From: a phage
Strand: one strand, 5' to 3'
Assembly: GCA_011939005.1 (NCBI GenBank)
Contig: GCA_011939005.1_4858.1
DNA length: 64,000 nucleotides
The notes under the pieces are model-generated. The model made no database searches. It was given only the letters and a program-made list of their open reading frames with translations, and was not told the origin of the DNA. Both the position numbers and the translations under genes were made by a program. Positions within the stretch are counted from its first letter, which is position 1, and each line of letters begins with the position of its first letter. Of the stretch, positions 1-7,261 are shown piece by piece.

Positions 1-891
1 GGTTTATCATACCTCACGCAGAATCTGTAAATTTTAATCAGCCAGGTACTGGCGTTTCACAACGGGAGTACCCACCCCTCTCGTCTGTTCCGAGCCGTCA
101 AGATCCGATCACCCCACTTTGGAGTTATCCCCCAAGTCTGCGGTTCTACACGCAGACCCCTTTTCGACGCAACGCCGAATTCGAATCAGTTTTGGCCCGA
201 CGCCAGAGCGGAATCAGCGATAACTATCGGAGGTAAGTTCAACGACGTCTCTCCGCTGCCCAGTCCTCTGGCGCTGCCACGGTCAACTCGGATTTTGTCA
301 TGGGTGCGCAGTCGACTTTCTCGACACTCTCGCAAACCGAACTACGCCCGACGTAGCACCGTCGGCAGGTCGGTTATTTACCGAGTACCTGAATGGGTGG
401 TGATTGTCGGAATCCCCGCCGACGCTCACCGGTTCTGTTCCACGGCGAAAGTTTTCCAGAACATAATAAATCACGCAGTGTTAGATTGCGCTTTGTCGAA
501 GACACCACGGTAGGTATTTTCGAAAAAGCGTCCTGGGTATCAGTCCCAGGACTTGGAGCCCTAGTGTGCAGGGTTTAAAAAGTGATTGGACCATTGGCGC
601 GGTCAATCGCTATTCGCATATAACAACAAACTCACGTAATCAAAAAATTACCGGCTCGAGGCGTAGGCGTCCAGGAGCCGGTGAGTCACACAGCAGTGAG
701 TCCCTCTGCGGGGATTTTCGTGGAGCTTGTCGTTGGAATAAAAATCCGTCCCCGGACGGGTTGGTGTTGTGGGTCGACTTGTCAGAGTCTACCTACCAGG
801 GAGGCGACCACCAAAGCTATGGGTTTTTGGACATCGAGTGGTGGTCTGAACACACGATAGGGAAACCACGTAAAAAATACACAGGGTACCC

Positions 892-1135
892 GATCTCGGT
901 CTTCCGTCCGATCACGATCTCTTAATAAGGATCACGCGCGCGCCCGCACGCGTTTTAAGATCTTAATATATTAATATATTTATTTATATAAATAATTATA
1001 ATAATTAAATATAATACCTAAAGGTATTATTATATTTAATATTATTATATATTTTAAAAGATCCTGGAGGATACGGGTGCGCGCACGCGCACGCGTATAA
1101 GGAAAGGGTCTTCGACCCGATCCACAGGATCGATC
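892..1135. promoter_or_regulatory. Candidate cis-acting element (replication-origin-like): A+T core 953-1059 with central palindrome 1011-1030, flanked by alternating Pu/Py GC tracts 933-952 and 1077-1096, 9 GATC sites
   Basis: Direct reading: GATC at 892, 910, 916, 930, 959, 1060, 1119, 1128, 1132; core has only 6 G/C in 107 nt; function is inference. Confidence 0.3.
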
Positions 1136-1686
1136 TAAAAAACAATCTAAGTGATTGTTTTAAAAAGAAATTTTGAGAATTAGATTAAATTATCCCCTAA
1201 GGGGGATTTTAGAGTGAGTTAAACAACCCAAAGAACTCGTAAGTAACCGACAGTGTGTGTCGGTTACAGAACGATCCAGTTTTCACCCAGACATGGCACG
1301 AAGTGCTACCCAACGTGTGATCGTCGCGGCGACCGGCGACCGTCGTCCCGGAACCGAAACGGGAATGGCTCTCTCGCGCTCTCAGCGGCCCGCTGGCGCG
1401 ATTTTCCGGTAGGGGGAACCCAAGTGTACTGGGTCAGTTATAAATCTCGTTCTAGCGCTTTCTAGAGCGTTTTTAATAACCGGTTAAAAAACATACAATC
1501 CTGAATCCCCATTCCCCGTATTTCCTCGCCCCGACAAAAATAAATTCACCGACTCGATGCAAGACCCCCTCTAAAACGCACGTAATTGACCCTAGAAAAC
1601 GATAAACTATCAAAAATGAGCTACCCTACATCCAGACCACTTAATCGTTTTCTGGTGTTTCCTAGACCTCTTTAATCGGATGGTTA

Positions 1687-1734
1687 AAAAAACAAAAAAA
1701 ATAAGATTGGCGTACTCCCCGAAGAGAGTACGCC
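1687..1734 (-). terminator. Intrinsic terminator (stem 1709-1717/1726-1734, UUCG-type loop on minus RNA, U-tract from plus A-run 1686-1704)
   Basis: 9-bp GC-rich stem directly 3' of minus-strand gene ending at 1742, followed on minus strand by long U-run. Confidence 0.7.
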
Positions 1735-1741
1735 TAGTGAC

Positions 1742-2251
1742 TTAACACTTGATGGTGTAGCCATCAAGGCCAAGGTGTACTGGTTTTATCCATAACCCTG
1801 GCTCCCCGAAAATATTCAGGTCGTAAGTTTGGTAATGCATGATCTTTGCAGGAACATGCACACCCATGCGTTGCAGAAATTCCCAGACGGCGACGTAGCG
1901 TTCACGAGTGATGAACATTAGCCCGGAGTCGAACCCGGAACCGATGTCTAGGAAATTACCAAGAGAACTGTCAAAACTTGACACCCCATCTTGAGTAAGT
2001 GCGACCAACCCTTTAGTTAAATCTCTGTGGTTGTCAATGAAGTTACAGAGATCTACGATGGTTATTTGACCGTAAATACGACGGAGGACGGCAGCAACAG
2101 CCAAAATCTCGCTGGTATTTCCGTAGTCACCTAAAGGGTTATGGTCCATCATCGCAGTAATTATGCTTGTGTCGCAGAGGTCGATTAACCGCTGGTCGTG
2201 TACCACCAGGTTAAGACCTTGCTCCACCTGCACGGTTGGCGCAGTAAACAT
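1742..2251 (-). CDS. Hypothetical protein (about 169 aa; ORF extends to 2296 but internal ATG at 2251 follows SD ggag and avoids overlap)
   Basis: Six-frame ORF; SD ggagcctcct immediately before ATG at 2251 and just after stop of upstream gene. Confidence 0.5.
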   Translation of the reverse strand: MFTAPTVQVEQGLNLVVHDQRLIDLCDTSIITAMMDHNPLGDYGNTSEILAVAAVLRRIYGQITIVDLCNFIDNHRDLTKGLVALTQDGVSSFDSSLGNFLDIGSGFDSGLMFITRERYVAVWEFLQRMGVHVPAKIMHYQTYDLNIFGEPGLWIKPVHLGLDGYTIKC

Positions 2252-2261
2252 AGGAGGCTCC

Positions 2262-3395
2262 TTACGTTTTGACTGACTGTGAAGGTAATCTGGCATCGTA
2301 CATTAAAAAGATTTCCAGCAGGTTCATACCCGTCGCGTAAAAGATTTGGTCTGTGATGACACTCACTAACGCATCTGGGTCAATCGCATCTACTGCGAAA
2401 TCGCTGTCGAACTGCCAGAACTCGACGTCATCCCCCTTTTCAAACGTCGCGGCATACAATCCAGGTTTCACACCACGCCGGAACGAAAAGAGTTTTGCGT
2501 CAGACTCAGTGTCCTTACCATAAATTTCCCCGTCGGTCAGTGTGATCGCTGCGCGTTTACACCGAGTTACCGTAAGGAGCGCACGGTTTGCAGATGCTTG
2601 CGATTTAAACGGATAGGGGCCATCGTATGTCGGGACATTCTGGTCGCCTAAGGCATCAAGTGCCTTACTCCGATAGACTACCGGAGACTTAAAATTACAC
2701 AGTCGATTCCCTTCGGTAAACATTGTGTATTCGACCTTAACGTCGGTACCGACGAGGTCAGCAGGGGACACTTTGTAGTGTGCTAACTGTCCCTGCACGC
2801 GGCGAGAGAGCATCGATGCCAGGAACGTGTGGTTGCCCTGTGTACGCAAGACATACCCAAACTCTGTGCAGTCGACGATACGAGCGTCCATACGCCGTAC
2901 AGGCTCCAGCCGGTAAGTCACATCATTCGCTTCGATAAGAAACTGACTGATGCTAACATCGCGAGATCGATGTTTGATTGCTTCAAACACTTCACCCGCT
3001 TCCAGAATAGCTGGTTCAATTACATTGACCTGGAATGGGAGGGGTTTCGTCGGCCGTTGACCCATTGTTGTCACTGTCATCGAACGTAGCCACGGGTCGT
3101 CCTCGCTAGGGTCATTGGAGAGCCAATGCGTTAACCAGCGAGAAAGATTCTGGGGAATCGTTGCGGTTGAATATAAAATCACGGTACCCATTATGCCTGC
3201 ATCGGCCAGCAAGCGCGCGAGTACCGTGTTCATCGAATCGTATTTGCCATTTCGAAGAATAGGTAATCCCCCGACCTGGACCATTTCGCAGATGACGCCG
3301 TGCGGCAGCACCCACATCTTCACTTGTTGGGCAGAATGTATCTGCCCCGTGCGTAGCTTTTCTTGCCACGCGTGCTTACGTTCATAGTTCATCAT
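2262..3395 (-). CDS. Hypothetical protein, 377 aa
   Basis: Long ORF, SD aggag upstream, followed by terminator at 1709-1734 after next gene. Confidence 0.6.
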   Translation of the reverse strand: MMNYERKHAWQEKLRTGQIHSAQQVKMWVLPHGVICEMVQVGGLPILRNGKYDSMNTVLARLLADAGIMGTVILYSTATIPQNLSRWLTHWLSNDPSEDDPWLRSMTVTTMGQRPTKPLPFQVNVIEPAILEAGEVFEAIKHRSRDVSISQFLIEANDVTYRLEPVRRMDARIVDCTEFGYVLRTQGNHTFLASMLSRRVQGQLAHYKVSPADLVGTDVKVEYTMFTEGNRLCNFKSPVVYRSKALDALGDQNVPTYDGPYPFKSQASANRALLTVTRCKRAAITLTDGEIYGKDTESDAKLFSFRRGVKPGLYAATFEKGDDVEFWQFDSDFAVDAIDPDALVSVITDQIFYATGMNLLEIFLMYDARLPSQSVKT

Positions 3396-3467
3396 TGGGT
3401 AAAATCTCCTTCAGGTATACTCTCAGTATGATAACATATATCCGTAAATTTTTAGAGGTTTAGCGCC

Positions 3468-4844
3468 ATGTCTGAATTGGTTTATGATTTCAGTGCCGGT
3501 TGTTATCGTGATACCGGAGTGAAGGTTGCCGTCGAATCATTCGGACGTGACCCATTCTTCGACGATGACACGTATTCTACGGGCTTGTATTACGACTACG
3601 GTTTTGGCGGCTACGTTCCGATGGGACTGGTGGTTGCTGCAGAAGCCATGAAGAATGACCGATTACGTAAAGTGTTTGACGAATGTTTTAAACATGTCGT
3701 TATCGATCGTCGTTTTGCAAAGCAAATTCAACTTCACGTGGATAACATTCTTAAACGTGAAGGCAATGTGGAGTGGCTAGGGTCTAATCTATTAGGCGTC
3801 CACACCATTCGTTTCTACGATTCTGACCGTAACCGCTTTTTTGAAGATGTCTTGAAAGTGGATGAAGATTATCTGTTCGAGATGATTAAAGAATCGGGTA
3901 CGATTAACACCGACTGGGCAGTGGCGGGTGATCCGTATAACCTCTCTACGGTGTATACTCTACATCGAATGATGTCGAAATTCGCCGATCGTGAAATCCA
4001 CGCCGCGGCGGTATCGTTAGTAACGCTTCTGCAATTCAAATTCTACTCCAGTATATATTATCACTTCTTCCCCAAGCCGGTCGACATGGCCGCTGCCGAC
4101 GCCGCATACTCGATGTTGTCGTTAAAGTTCGATATCCGTCGTTTAGGCAACTGGGGTCTGCACATGCAGGAGCGTTCAGAATACTTCTGTTCTCCGGAGT
4201 ACCCAAACTACGACGCGGTTAAACGTTTTGATACGCCAGACCTGGTATTGCGTTTTATCACCGACCTGAACACCCGTACCAAACAAACTGTGAAGGACTA
4301 TTACGCGGTATTGGACAAAGTGCGTCGTGATAACAGTCGTGTAATTACGCAGTCAACCCGAATTGAGTTAGACGGTGAATCGATTATCCGTGACAAAGTG
4401 GGTGCGCTGGATATCGCTAAGCAGAATTTGTTCGATGCGTCTTACGACATCAACAATCTCTACAAAGAGCAATTGGCAAAAGTGGTATTGGAGCTAGTAC
4501 CCAAAGCATCTCCCGCGGCACTGAAAACTTTGCTGGCGTATATTGCAAGTCTACCGCTTGGCAAAAAGCGCGATGAGATTAACGCTATCATGGAGGACAC
4601 GCTATCGCACGCGTTCGACGAAATTGTTACCTCTCGTCTGAACTTTAACGATGCGAGCACGGTTCTACTGCGTATGCGTTCGTTGTACCAGGCTTCGAAG
4701 TCCCCTAACCCATACGTGTTATCGTTGCGTGAACGGATTGAGAAACTGGCCGCACGGGAAACACACATCCGCCATGAAGCCGCGTTGGCCGCTTTGCGTA
4801 ATGCGTTACTGTTGTACTTCTTGATCCGCTCTTTGCAGAAATAA
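3468..4844 (+). CDS. Hypothetical protein, 458 aa
   Basis: Long ORF with SD gagg upstream and strong terminator downstream. Confidence 0.7.
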   Translation: MSELVYDFSAGCYRDTGVKVAVESFGRDPFFDDDTYSTGLYYDYGFGGYVPMGLVVAAEAMKNDRLRKVFDECFKHVVIDRRFAKQIQLHVDNILKREGNVEWLGSNLLGVHTIRFYDSDRNRFFEDVLKVDEDYLFEMIKESGTINTDWAVAGDPYNLSTVYTLHRMMSKFADREIHAAAVSLVTLLQFKFYSSIYYHFFPKPVDMAAADAAYSMLSLKFDIRRLGNWGLHMQERSEYFCSPEYPNYDAVKRFDTPDLVLRFITDLNTRTKQTVKDYYAVLDKVRRDNSRVITQSTRIELDGESIIRDKVGALDIAKQNLFDASYDINNLYKEQLAKVVLELVPKASPAALKTLLAYIASLPLGKKRDEINAIMEDTLSHAFDEIVTSRLNFNDASTVLLRMRSLYQASKSPNPYVLSLRERIEKLAARETHIRHEAALAALRNALLLYFLIRSLQK

Positions 4845-4910: not shown

Positions 4911-5153
4911 TCAGGCGAGTGCTCCCGATACGGCAACTTGATGTAGGGTATACACAACGTGTAGCCCCGCGGTCGATAGTCCACCGATAAGCAATACGCC
5001 AAAGCTACAGATAATCTGTCCGAGCCGCATTGTGCGTGTGCAGACATCGTGGCTTTGTGCGTGTATGCGTATTACTTCGATGGTGTGGCGTAAGCCAAAG
5101 TACAGGCAAATCCACATTACCAGCACGATTGCATAGTAGAGTTGAGTCATCAC
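4911..5153 (-). CDS. Small membrane protein with two predicted TM helices (holin-like candidate)
   Basis: 80 aa, two hydrophobic stretches (LYYAIVLVMWICLYFGL and IICSFGVLLIGGLSTAGLHVV); start overlaps terminase stop by 4 nt. Confidence 0.45.
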   Translation of the reverse strand: MMTQLYYAIVLVMWICLYFGLRHTIEVIRIHAQSHDVCTRTMRLGQIICSFGVLLIGGLSTAGLHVVYTLHQVAVSGALA

Positions 5154-7261
5154 TTCATCCTCTGTCGTTGGATTAGCTCTTTCAAGCTTTCCATCGATGC
5201 GACGTTACGAACGTCAGTGTTGAGTTGAGAGACGAGCGCTTGAATACGATTCTTGTACATGAGCTGTTGTACCGGGTCGGCTACAACTTGACTCTGTCTA
5301 ATCATCGTTTCAATTTGCCCCATCAGTTGTTGTTGCTTTTCTTCTTCCTCGACTGCAGCCTCTTCATCGAATTCACCTGCCATGCCCCCAAGCATATTGC
5401 GGTTGCGCATCATCAGTCGGCTGTTACTTATACCGTAGTGGCCTAAGTTGTTGCCGAACAGAAGTAACCACATTGCCAGAAGCCAGGATATTACCAGGTC
5501 ATCGTGACCGGATGCACGGTGGTCTATGCGCCCGTTTCGTTCGACGAGACCGAGGATTTGGTCGATCAATTCGCCTGACCGCAGTAAGTCCGCAGAAAGA
5601 CGCAACGCCGTGGTAAATACTTCACCATACAACTTACGGCGTTTATCCTGGTCGGTTGAGAAACCGATGTATTTACGGAATTTGTCCCAGAAGCGCTCTG
5701 GACTGCCCACAGGGCCACGATGGAACTCTTTGTAAAGTTCATCGTTCCTTGAGTAATCCTGGGTCACTTTCACGTACAAACGACGATGCAAATCGCGAAC
5801 CTTAGATTGCAGCTGCAGTATAATGGCATCTGCTACCGAGGAGCCGGTAGACCGTCGTTCCAGAATGAGTACCGTGTTCGGATATTCGATCATGAAGTCT
5901 GCTAAGTGAATCGCAAACCCGATGACGTTTGTTTCGTTCACGGTGAGCTTGCCGGCATATTCGGCAGTGACAGAGTTGACGATTGACATGGCAATGGCGT
6001 CACGTCCAACGGCTTCGGAAGTATCCAAACCGATGATGTGGCGGTCTTGCATTTTAACCAGCATCTGCTCTTCAGTGTAATACCAATCCGTTACGTAGTT
6101 GGATGCAGAGATAATTTTCTGCGCCGCACGAACACGCGAGTCGTTCATACGTCTTGCATCATCGCCTGAGAACGGTTTGTTGTAACCACCGGTTGTCCAT
6201 TCACCACCGAAGTCACGGCGGATTTGGTCTAGTGTACCTGGGGCGTTCGCAATCATATCTGCGAGTTCTTCGTCCGTGGTACCGAGTTGGCGGTGGTTGT
6301 ATTTCACGTAGAACATGATACGTGGAATCTTCGCAGTAGAGCCTTTGCGAATCATGTCAATCAGTTGTGCACGAGTCGGAATGTCGATATACCGTTCATC
6401 CCACGAAATCCCCGACGTCATCAGGCTGTACATGTACTCGCCTTCTTCTGTCGCCAAATCCCCAGGCGTTGTTGCGAAGACGTTGCCGTATGGAACACCT
6501 TCGGCTTCGTTAATACGACGCGCCGCGGTACCCGATGCTAGTGCAGCAGGGAGGATATGGTGGATGTTGTTGGTAAACGGTCCTTCATCCGAGAACAGGC
6601 GTCCGGCTGTGAGTCCACGGCCTACCCCGTTCGCAGCTTCCTTATCGTTTTGACCGATGCCGGTGATAAGTTTGTTACCCTGTGCTAGACAAGCAAATGT
6701 CTCACGGTTATCAGGATCGTCCGGATGATGAGGCCAGAGATAATCCGGTAACGCGTTACGCAGTTGTTTCATTTTGTTGATAGTTTCTTCACGCAGGGCA
6801 GGACCCTTCGTGATAAGAATCGTACGTGAGTTCTCCAGGAAGCGCATCAGCCACAATAGCAATGCGGACATCCCGACGGTCTTACCATGCTGACGGAGAA
6901 ACTCGATAGCGGCGTCGATGTTGTTGAAGAAAATCCAATACATCGAAAAGTTACCGCGGTCTAGACGAAACGGCATCCCGTTCTTTACACCATCCGCAGG
7001 GACCCGGACACACTCACGGAAGAAGTACCATGGGTTTTCCGCACACTCCGTAACAATCATCGCTTTTTGTTCGAGTGTTAAATCCGGGCTAAACGGATCA
7101 ACACCACGGAGTTCGGGATTGTGTAATGCCAGGTGGACGTACCAATGCTGGACACCTAATCCTTGTAGTGTTGTGGCGAATTGAAGGAAGTGCACGTTTG
7201 GTGTGACATCGTCAACAATCGCCCCCGGATAGTGTCGCCAATCGTTTTTTCGCAGTATCAT
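5150..7261 (-). CDS. terL: Terminase large subunit (T4 gp17-like)
   Basis: 703 aa; LRQHGKTVGMSALL resembles T4 gp17 Walker A SRQLGKTTVVAIF; C-terminal GHDDLVISWLLAMWLL resembles gp17 nuclease motif GYHDDLVMSLVIFGWL (both from memory); SD ggag. Confidence 0.9.
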   Translation of the reverse strand: MILRKNDWRHYPGAIVDDVTPNVHFLQFATTLQGLGVQHWYVHLALHNPELRGVDPFSPDLTLEQKAMIVTECAENPWYFFRECVRVPADGVKNGMPFRLDRGNFSMYWIFFNNIDAAIEFLRQHGKTVGMSALLLWLMRFLENSRTILITKGPALREETINKMKQLRNALPDYLWPHHPDDPDNRETFACLAQGNKLITGIGQNDKEAANGVGRGLTAGRLFSDEGPFTNNIHHILPAALASGTAARRINEAEGVPYGNVFATTPGDLATEEGEYMYSLMTSGISWDERYIDIPTRAQLIDMIRKGSTAKIPRIMFYVKYNHRQLGTTDEELADMIANAPGTLDQIRRDFGGEWTTGGYNKPFSGDDARRMNDSRVRAAQKIISASNYVTDWYYTEEQMLVKMQDRHIIGLDTSEAVGRDAIAMSIVNSVTAEYAGKLTVNETNVIGFAIHLADFMIEYPNTVLILERRSTGSSVADAIILQLQSKVRDLHRRLYVKVTQDYSRNDELYKEFHRGPVGSPERFWDKFRKYIGFSTDQDKRRKLYGEVFTTALRLSADLLRSGELIDQILGLVERNGRIDHRASGHDDLVISWLLAMWLLLFGNNLGHYGISNSRLMMRNRNMLGGMAGEFDEEAAVEEEEKQQQLMGQIETMIRQSQVVADPVQQLMYKNRIQALVSQLNTDVRNVASMESLKELIQRQRMK

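Follow-up and report, generated by a model that had tools for sequence, protein, structure and literature searches.

A conserved, single-copy array of covarying hairpins beside an AT-only core in SPN3US-like jumbo phages

What role might be played by a cluster of inverted repeats that lies next to an AT-rich core in a phage genome, in a gap without genes? This question is raised by a stretch of phage DNA of 64,000 nucleotides (NCBI GenBank assembly GCA_011939005.1, contig GCA_011939005.1_4858.1; hereafter the window), for which an earlier note had described short inverted repeats, a perfect 10-bp hairpin and a weak hairpin with a T-run as a possible terminator at positions 1141-1478. Positions 1-1800 of the window are 92-99% identical to SPN3US-type phages of Salmonella, Escherichia and Proteus and about 70% identical to SPAsTU and Erwinia phage pEa_SNUABM_29. 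Because of these matches, the window can be assigned to the genus Seoulvirus and is part of an SPN3US-like jumbo phage genome of about 240 kb. In annotated relatives, the equivalent of positions 1-1741 is a gap without genes between two minus-strand genes. The locus is a single-copy stretch of 1.7 kb without genes, and the inverted repeats form its right arm (about 1100-1500). The comparison with related phages indicates that the repeats belong to one module at about 1100-1500, which is conserved, non-coding and present in a single copy, and that, in this array of at least five hairpins, the pairing rather than the sequence is under selection.

The inverted repeats reported in the earlier note were all found by reading the sequence and by an exact hairpin scan, and they occur above chance, which was tested with 2000 dinucleotide shuffles for the stems and 100 shuffles for the folding. 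The region 1141-1478 contains 10 perfect stems of at least 5 bp, compared to 2.2 in the shuffles (P = 0.001), and a 10-bp stem arises in 0.6% of the shuffles of the same region. Moreover, on either strand, the region 1100-1480 folds better than each of the 100 shuffles (z = -5.1 and -4.6). However, about ten further perfect 10-bp hairpins exist in the 64-kb window and the stem by itself is not unusual. Since such stems are common elsewhere in the window, conservation is the decisive test.

For the comparison, the gap was lined up from 14 phages and later from 20 sequences including metagenomic relatives. When viral contigs were searched for relatives, a 14-base pattern gave chance matches only and a 17-18-base pattern gave a few true relatives. 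One architecture was found in four genera, namely Seoulvirus, Erskinevirus, Machinavirus and Wellingtonvirus. Its left part consists, in this order, of an AT-only core, the motif AAAGATCCTGNAGGA, a GC clamp, a TATAAT-like box, hairpin A and the motif TAAGT-N5-TTTTAAAA with an A/T palindrome; the right part consists of the hairpins C, D and E, hairpin G1 together with a conserved GATCG, a G+C-rich stretch that varies, element F and motif P. Hairpin C (ATCCCC-TAAG-GGGGAT, 1192-1207), to which the earlier note had assigned the positions 1192-1206, has a 6-bp stem that reads ATCCCC, CCGGCC, GCCAGC or CCCGGC, while the loop is constantly of the T-R-R-A-G type. At least two Watson-Crick pair types were counted at five of the six stem positions of hairpin C; the count was made by hand from a hairpin inventory, and MAFFT misaligned this hairpin. 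Hairpin D (1237-1274) contains the perfect 10-bp stem gtaaccgaca/tgtcggttac (1243-1252/1258-1267) with the loop GTGTG and an outer helix TCGT/ACGA (1237-1240/1271-1274), after which the conserved GATCCAGT comes. Depending on the lineage, its stem reads GTAACCGACA, GTATCCGACA, GTAATTCGCA, GACAAAC or GAGAGAC. The stem of mini-hairpin E (GCAC-GAA-GTGC, 1296-1306) is GCAC, ACGC, CCGC or GCG, giving ACGC-GAA-GCGT, CCGC-AAA-GCGG and GCG-CAAG-CGC in the relatives. Hairpin A (GGGTC-TTC-GACCC, 1106-1118) is represented in every lineage by a strong G+C-rich hairpin of unrelated sequence, which has 5-10 bp (up to 14 bp with wobble pairs) and a loop that flips (TTC/GAA versus CGGA/TCCG). Indeed, according to the hairpin inventory, each lineage has stems of its own, unrelated sequence at the syntenic positions.

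A plain MAFFT alignment of the 14 phages (RNAalifold) misaligned the covarying stems and was replaced by a two-genus alignment, a covariance model and the hairpin inventory. In the two-genus alignment of hairpins D and E, which comprises five sequences, 8 of the 20 pairs show double-sided changes and 95% of the cells are paired, a result that none of 500 shuffles matched; with slid partners as a control, pairing falls to 12-37%. In hairpin D of this alignment, compensatory changes were found in five of the ten inner pairs and in one of the four outer pairs, and all cells are paired. A model-based alignment of 22 distinct sequences, which was fitted to the structure and is hence biased toward it, shows double-sided changes in 15 of the 20 pairs (9/10 inner and 4/4 outer pairs of hairpin D). 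Compensatory base-pair changes, the hallmark by which a structured RNA is judged, are thus present in both alignments. A covariance model built from the five-sequence alignment gave a single match to the C-D-E module in the 64-kb window, a single one in each relative from the four genera with the exception of pEa_SNUABM_11, and none in Derbicusvirus. Compared with shuffles, the folding of the homologous regions reached z = -3.45 in phiEaH2, -3.45 in pEa_SNUABM_9 and -2.78 in pSal-SNUABM-04.

The earlier note had named conservation in relatives as a check, and for the repeats at 1192-1207 and 1243-1267 the pairing is indeed kept by covariation over the four genera. As the stem sequences change while the pairing stays, a folded single strand rather than a double-stranded operator is selected. 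The repeat aacaatc/gattgtt at 1141-1159 (7 bp, 5-nt loop) fared differently. It extends to 9 bp with the loop TAAGT (hairpin B, 1139-1161), but relatives show other hairpins or none at this place and only the linear motif TAAGT-N5-TTTTAAAA is kept. In the window, this motif (TAAGT-N5-(T)TTTAAAA, 1148-1165) occurs once and includes the loop and the 3' side of hairpin B. It is overlapped by the A/T-only palindrome TTTTAAAA-AGAAA-TTTTGAGA (1158-1178), which is conserved as TTTAAAAA...TTTTTAAA in the other genera. Among eight SPN3US-type phages, the segment 1090-1325 is nearly invariant with four variable columns, and a substitution hot spot with two haplotype groups lies at 1326-1360 within the otherwise nearly invariant segment 1090-1510. 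The hot spot contains the 7-nt tandem repeat CGGCGAC (2.3 copies). The left arm of the gap is conserved at least as well as the right arm.

The array adjoins the AT-only core (963-1056), which forms the centre of the 1.7-kb locus, comprises about 100 bp with 94% A+T and lies between a left GC clamp (934-953) and a right GC clamp (1078-1095). The clamps consist of alternating CG/CA, are direct repeats of each other and are bracketed by inverted AGGATC/GATCCT repeats. The centre of the core is formed by the palindrome ATAATACC-TAAA-GGTATTAT (1011-1030), and a related palindrome is present at the same place in the relatives compared. In several other genera, the core centre contains a palindrome of the TATCCC-N3-GGGATA type, and phiEaH2 and Asesino have ATATC-TAAA-GATAT instead. 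As single-stranded DNA (ssDNA), the core region folds at z = -4.6. Nine GATC sites are clustered in 260 bp (892-1132), where 0.67 would be expected, and the hairpin CGATCC-ACA-GGATCG (1118-1132) holds two GATC sites. This group is the densest in the 64-kb window although GATC is depleted genome-wide (164 observed versus 250-356 expected), and similar clusters exist in most relatives. Both the AT core and the GATC cluster are conserved in relatives. Immediately outside both clamps, there is an outward-facing TA-rich box followed by GAGAT(C). The alignment of both flanks from 14 phages revealed a candidate outward promoter element just outside the right clamp, the -10-like box TATAAG (1096-1101, plus strand), which reads TATAAT in Erskinevirus and part of Machinavirus, and a candidate counterpart on the minus strand, TTATTA(A/C)GAGATC (about 915-928).

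We favour, at somewhat below an even chance, the reading that the array would be a structured non-coding plus-strand transcript of about 370 nt, which is mirrored by a minus-strand unit on the left, and that the locus would be a transcription-coupled control region. The transcript would start near 1105, just past the right GC clamp and the TATAAG/TATAAT box, proceed rightward as plus-strand RNA via the hairpins A, C, D, E and G1, and end in the present phage at the 1448-1469 hairpin with its T5. The mirror minus-strand unit would leave the core leftward and end at 759-746 and 552-530. Along with the clamped AT core and its GATC cluster, the two outward structured transcripts would constitute a control region, either a replication origin or an early regulatory hub. 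We infer the promoter, the ends of the transcript, the strand that folds and any replication role, and the proposal of an origin function is drawn solely from the core, its clamps and the clustered GATC sites.

The predicted transcript ends were assessed by requiring at least five pairs, at least three G-C pairs, a loop of 3-8 nt and at least five T within 8 nt after the stem for an intrinsic terminator. In the region 1-2400, 11 terminator-like sites were found, compared to 2.5 expected. On the plus strand, the hairpin CGTTCTAG-CGCTTT-CTAGAGCG (1448-1469) followed by T5 (1470-1474) qualifies as an intrinsic terminator with 8 pairs (one G.U and four G-C), a loop of 6 nt and the tail TTTTTAATAA. 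The earlier note had read this hairpin with its T5, placed at about 1453-1477, as the terminator of a short plus-strand transcript. This reading gains support within Seoulvirus, where a hairpin with a T-run is kept at this place in SPAsTU and pEa29 with differing stems. However, a bidirectional terminator further right replaces it in Machinavirus, Erskinevirus has no clear plus-strand terminator, and the terminator is weak in Wellington and absent in Asesino. The minus-strand terminator-like hairpin at 746-759, which had also been noted, is present as an intrinsic terminator (759-746) whose stem varies and whose T-run is conserved; it is shared by most or all genera. A second minus-strand intrinsic terminator at 552-530, with a variable stem and an invariant CTTTTTCGAG tail, was found in 14 of the 14 phages. 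Both left-arm terminators contain G.U pairs. The divergent transcripts flanking the AT core that the earlier note had envisaged are predicted ones: the conserved minus-strand terminators on the left speak for them, but plus-strand terminators on the right occur only in some genera. In their build, a G+C-rich stem followed by a T-run, the elements at 1448-1474 (plus), 759-746 (minus) and 552-530 (minus) resemble known intrinsic terminators. The hairpins A, C, D and E differ, have no adjoining T-run on either strand and are therefore not terminators. A further minus-strand intrinsic terminator, that of the 184-codon gene to the right (1709-1734; 11-bp stem with two G.T pairs, followed by a T-run), suggests that minus-strand transcription from the right is halted before the array. 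In Machinavirus (L005, L007, L008, L010, L012 and L013), the terminator of the upstream gene, GGGAGC-CGAA-GCTCCC, lies about 500 nt right of the core and has T-runs on both sides, which points to incoming (convergent) plus-strand transcription from the array.

Which strand is folded is judged differently by different elements. In the scanned hairpins, 42 G.T versus 19 A.C wobbles occur on the plus strand, concentrated in hairpin G1, which together with the conserved GATCG occupies 1319-1341 and has several G.T stem pairs on the plus strand in most lineages. The loops are purine-rich on the plus strand, with the GNRA tetraloops GAAA, GTAA and GAGA in three lineages. By contrast, in element F (ACCCA-AGTGTAC-TGGGT, 1418-1434; also given as ACCCnnnnGTACnnGGT), whose sequence is conserved in all genera, the fifth pair (in pEa29 also the fourth) is A.C on the plus strand and hence G.U on the minus strand in several lineages. 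Thus, the G.U evidence from G1, E and the 1448-1469 hairpin favours the plus strand and that from F, D and single variants the minus strand, and the strand tests (minimum free energy of the whole region and per segment, wobbles stacked on shared helices) do not point consistently to either strand.

Several observations weigh against a plus-strand transcript. For element F and hairpin D, the minus strand gives the better fold in nearly all lineages, and pairs of F are kept only via minus-strand G.U in SPAsTU, pEa29, phiEaH2, Asesino, pEa9 and Caitlin. Proteus phage 7 carries two G-to-A changes in 1383-1395 that are minus-strand wobbles, and pEa_SNUABM_11 has an internal A.C in hairpin D. Furthermore, the hairpins A, C, D and E contain almost no wobbles on either strand, which is unusual for RNA helices so diverged; this scarcity could be due to folding on both strands, to folding as DNA or to strong selection. 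In Wellington, the folding of the region as a whole is no better than that of shuffles (z = -0.24), although hairpin D is kept nonetheless, and no clear plus-strand terminator exists in Erskinevirus. Moreover, the -10-like box is poorly conserved (TATAAG, GTAAAG, CTAATA, TAGATA), a -35 box is absent and transcript data for SPN3US-like phages were not found in the literature.

Some of these points would be explained if the hairpins act at the level of the DNA, that is, as ssDNA or cruciforms beside an unwinding element, with hairpins of the strand displaced on melting of the AT core serving as loading or priming signals and no stable RNA being required. Similar signals are the complementary-strand origins of G4 or M13, the plasmid ssi/sso signals and nick-site hairpins whose loop is conserved. 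Action at the DNA level is a possible, if rather doubtful, alternative. It would agree with the nearly exclusive Watson-Crick pairing of A, C, D and E, which are foldable on both strands whereas the left-arm RNA terminators do have G.U pairs, with the failure of either strand to be favoured consistently, with the conserved loop of hairpin C on a freely varying stem, and with the place of the array beside an AT-only core with a GATC cluster that folds well as ssDNA. Hairpin E is a C-GAA-G mini-hairpin, in phiEaH2 exactly GCGAAGC, and mini-hairpins of this type are very stable in DNA and are found in the origins of ssDNA phages. However, no initiator, iterons or DnaA boxes were found at the locus, neither the GC skew nor the gene orientation changes there, the several G.T pairs of G1 are weak in DNA, and the terminator-like ends of both arms indicate transcription. 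An RNA of the minus strand would be either an independent non-coding RNA (ncRNA) that starts close to motif P (about 1500) or a long leader. It would cross the array leftward and possibly extend over the core to the minus-strand terminators; we regard it as unlikely. Every neighbouring gene within more than 35 kb is on the minus strand, the minus-strand terminator of the upstream gene is in all cases closely followed by motif P, and conserved minus-strand terminators are located farther left. Moreover, minus-strand pairing is favoured by F, D and the variants of Proteus phage 7 and pEa11, and a T-rich tract follows hairpin C on the minus strand in eight phages. On the other hand, G1, E and the 1448-1469 hairpin require plus-strand G.U, the loops are pyrimidine-rich on the minus strand, motif P has no conserved -10 partner and is nowhere else a promoter motif, and no canonical minus-strand terminator exists within the array. 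It also seems improbable, but would reconcile the two strands, that the locus is the replication origin of the SPN3US-like nucleus-forming jumbo phages, in which the AT core unwinds between clusters of Dam sites and the array is read on both strands as sense and antisense structured RNAs in the manner of the ColE1 primer and its regulator. Such a sense/antisense arrangement would explain both the strictly Watson-Crick stems and the conflicting strand tests.

We consider the remaining explanations very unlikely. In a pac-like packaging region, the terminase would read the GATC clusters around the AT stretch in the manner of P1 pac, with the hairpins as accessory sites. Nine GATC sites do flank the core in a GATC-depleted genome, the large terminase gene is 3.4 kb away, and many public records start in or beside the locus. 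However, these record starts differ (968, 1030, 1167 and others) and are explained by assembly breaks at the AT stretch together with a copied SPN3US start convention, the genomes are reported to be circularly permuted (PMC6614189), the GATC contexts are varied rather than a repeated hexamer, and the covarying hairpins would be left unexplained. Still less can be said for double-stranded operators of dimeric phage proteins; the earlier note had suggested operator or protein-binding sites for the repeats at 1141-1159 and 1192-1206. The palindromes are short and perfect, and the sequence-conserved linear motifs AAAGATCCTGNAGGA, TAAGT-N5-TTTTAAAA, F and P could be protein sites. However, the half-sites of C and D are not conserved but wholly replaced between genera by unrelated, complementary sequence, which largely refutes operators for these two hairpins, and 1141-1159 is not conserved as a repeat. 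Chance repeats in a neutral spacer or a small unannotated protein gene (open reading frames (ORFs) 1253-1465 and 1257-1412) have a practically negligible probability. The G+C-rich part contains open frames of 50-70 codons, but the repeats exceed the shuffles and the region is conserved, with compensatory changes, across the four genera. Moreover, each of the six frames has open stretches, whose limits do not agree even in close relatives, no frame stands out in tblastn, and no ORF is conserved in frame and extent. The protein gene was therefore rejected, and this explanation is refuted for practical purposes. A scan of the region 1-4000 against Rfam at E <= 1 gave only two chance-level matches (E about 0.7), and a scan for tRNAs and tmRNA gave none. 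A k-mer enrichment revealed no general promoter motif in the window; motif P and the TAAGT motif were rejected as general promoter motifs, both being confined to this locus.

The favoured plus-strand transcript and its mirror unit can be compared with several known systems. Like the transcription-activated or R-loop origins (T4 oriF/oriG, the primary origin of T7 and ColE1 RNA II/RNA I), the locus has an AT-rich, easily melted stretch by promoter-like boxes and, beside it, a putative structured ncRNA of a few hundred nt, and hairpins that can fold on either strand would be appropriate for a sense/antisense pair of the ColE1 kind. The AT core with the GATC cluster may suggest the 'transcription-activated origin' of the earlier note. 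However, unlike in T4 oriF/oriG and ColE1, where a transcript runs into the unwinding element, the putative transcripts leave the AT core and the terminators on both sides point outward; a minus-strand RNA from motif P may run into the core. Furthermore, unlike in the transcription-activated origins, no RNase H-type processing site or initiator is identifiable at the locus, whose origin role is a proposal. SPN3US-like phages replicate within a protein shell. They also have their own multisubunit RNA polymerases (PMC7598289, a review on the RNA polymerases and promoters of jumbo phages).

The nine GATC sites in 260 bp around an AT-rich stretch also resemble the Dam/SeqA sites of oriC, P1 oriR and P1 pac, and the hosts (Salmonella, Escherichia and Erwinia) are Dam-positive. 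The locus thus shares the AT-rich unwinding element and the clustered GATC with oriC and P1 oriR but not their DnaA boxes, 13-mer or iteron arrays, and the GATC contexts are heterogeneous. No DnaA boxes with up to one mismatch were found in 900-1700, and neither iteron families outside the AT core nor relevant tandem repeats were found at the locus; an oriC-like array was therefore rejected. P1 pac is defined by GATC-containing hexamers that are repeated on either side of a cleavage region and by genome ends that map to it; at the present locus, GATC flanks the core in varied contexts, and the record ends within the locus are heterogeneous. With the single-strand initiation (ssi) signals, such as the complementary-strand origins of G4 and M13 and the plasmid ssi/ssoA, the array shares a hairpin cluster with variable stems and a conserved loop (C, T-R-R-A-G) as well as the C-GAA-G mini-hairpin E. 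However, ssi signals act on fully single-stranded genomes or intermediates, whereas the present genome is a double-stranded one of 240 kb, and no sequence similarity between the array and ssi signals was found.

Small ncRNAs and functional intrinsic terminators are documented for the jumbo phages phiKZ and 201phi2-1 (PMC8545117, PMC11512511), and jumbo-phage RNA polymerases use intrinsic terminators (PMC11512511, PMC8545117). Like the ncRNAs of phiKZ and 201phi2-1, which are hairpin-rich, terminator-bounded and located between genes or in untranslated regions (UTRs) (PMC8545117, PMC11512511), the array is non-coding and rich in hairpins. However, these RNAs have 100-250 nt and mostly originate from UTRs, none has been reported from a core rich in AT and GATC, and no relation to the array in sequence or in Rfam was found. 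The array is a conserved, structured and non-coding module that is new but belongs to a known general kind; probably it is either a structured RNA that has escaped annotation or an element associated with an origin. No paper on the present locus was found, full-text searches gave neither a defined origin nor a mechanism of initiation for jumbo phages of the phiKZ-like or SPN3US-like type, and the term 'replication origin' is never used in a 2026 review of jumbo-phage biology. By its conservation over four genera, its AT-only core, its GATC cluster and its covarying hairpin arms, the locus is a concrete, testable candidate for an origin or a new structured RNA, and amber-mutant genetics are available for SPN3US. 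If the locus encoded merely a pair of small RNAs, it would be a modest addition to the known phage ncRNAs.

The locus is easily overlooked because several reference records are cut there and the SPN3US reference is apparently short by 57 bp, hairpin C being among the bases that are lacking. The public records of EC001, Proteus phage 7 and SPN3US are cut at 968, at 1030 and between 1167 and 1225, respectively. Moreover, 11 SPFM assemblies start 0-3.2 kb right of the locus and match it only as 20-29 broken pieces. As to the genomic setting, the genes are on the minus strand throughout for more than 35 kb around the locus, and no switch in GC skew or gene orientation occurs across it, with the caveat that phage skew tracks transcription. 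Relatives of the flanking ORF (1742-2296) and of the ORF next to it (2262-3395) exist in Erskinevirus, Machinavirus and Wellingtonvirus, in each of which the syntenic gap has 1.1-1.7 kb; those of the ORF 2262-3395 exist also in Derbicusvirus. The large terminase gene is located at 5150-7261. For the neighbouring proteins, no function could be assigned and no protein family was informative except for the large terminase.

At the right end of the conserved array lies motif P, GGTTAAAAAACATACAA (consensus GGTTAAAAAGTGTACAA), at 1482-1498, with a second copy at 1682-1698. Written as GGTTAAAAA(A/G)NNTACAA, the motif thus has two plus-strand copies at the right end; a similar inverted copy is located at the extreme left of the gap (22-39), and phiEaH2 has three copies. 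The minus-strand terminator at 552-530 is followed by the conserved CGACAAAGC...CTAACACT. The best-conserved non-coding stretches of the gap, 41-280 and 400-640, share 70-88% identity with relatives that are about 70% identical overall and contain no annotated gene. In Derbicusvirus (Cronobacter phage CR5 and Erwinia phage Phobos), the syntenic gap is shorter and without the array, and it contains an AT-rich stretch, repeated CATTCATT-like words and a GGTATCC(C)...(G)GGATACC palindrome.

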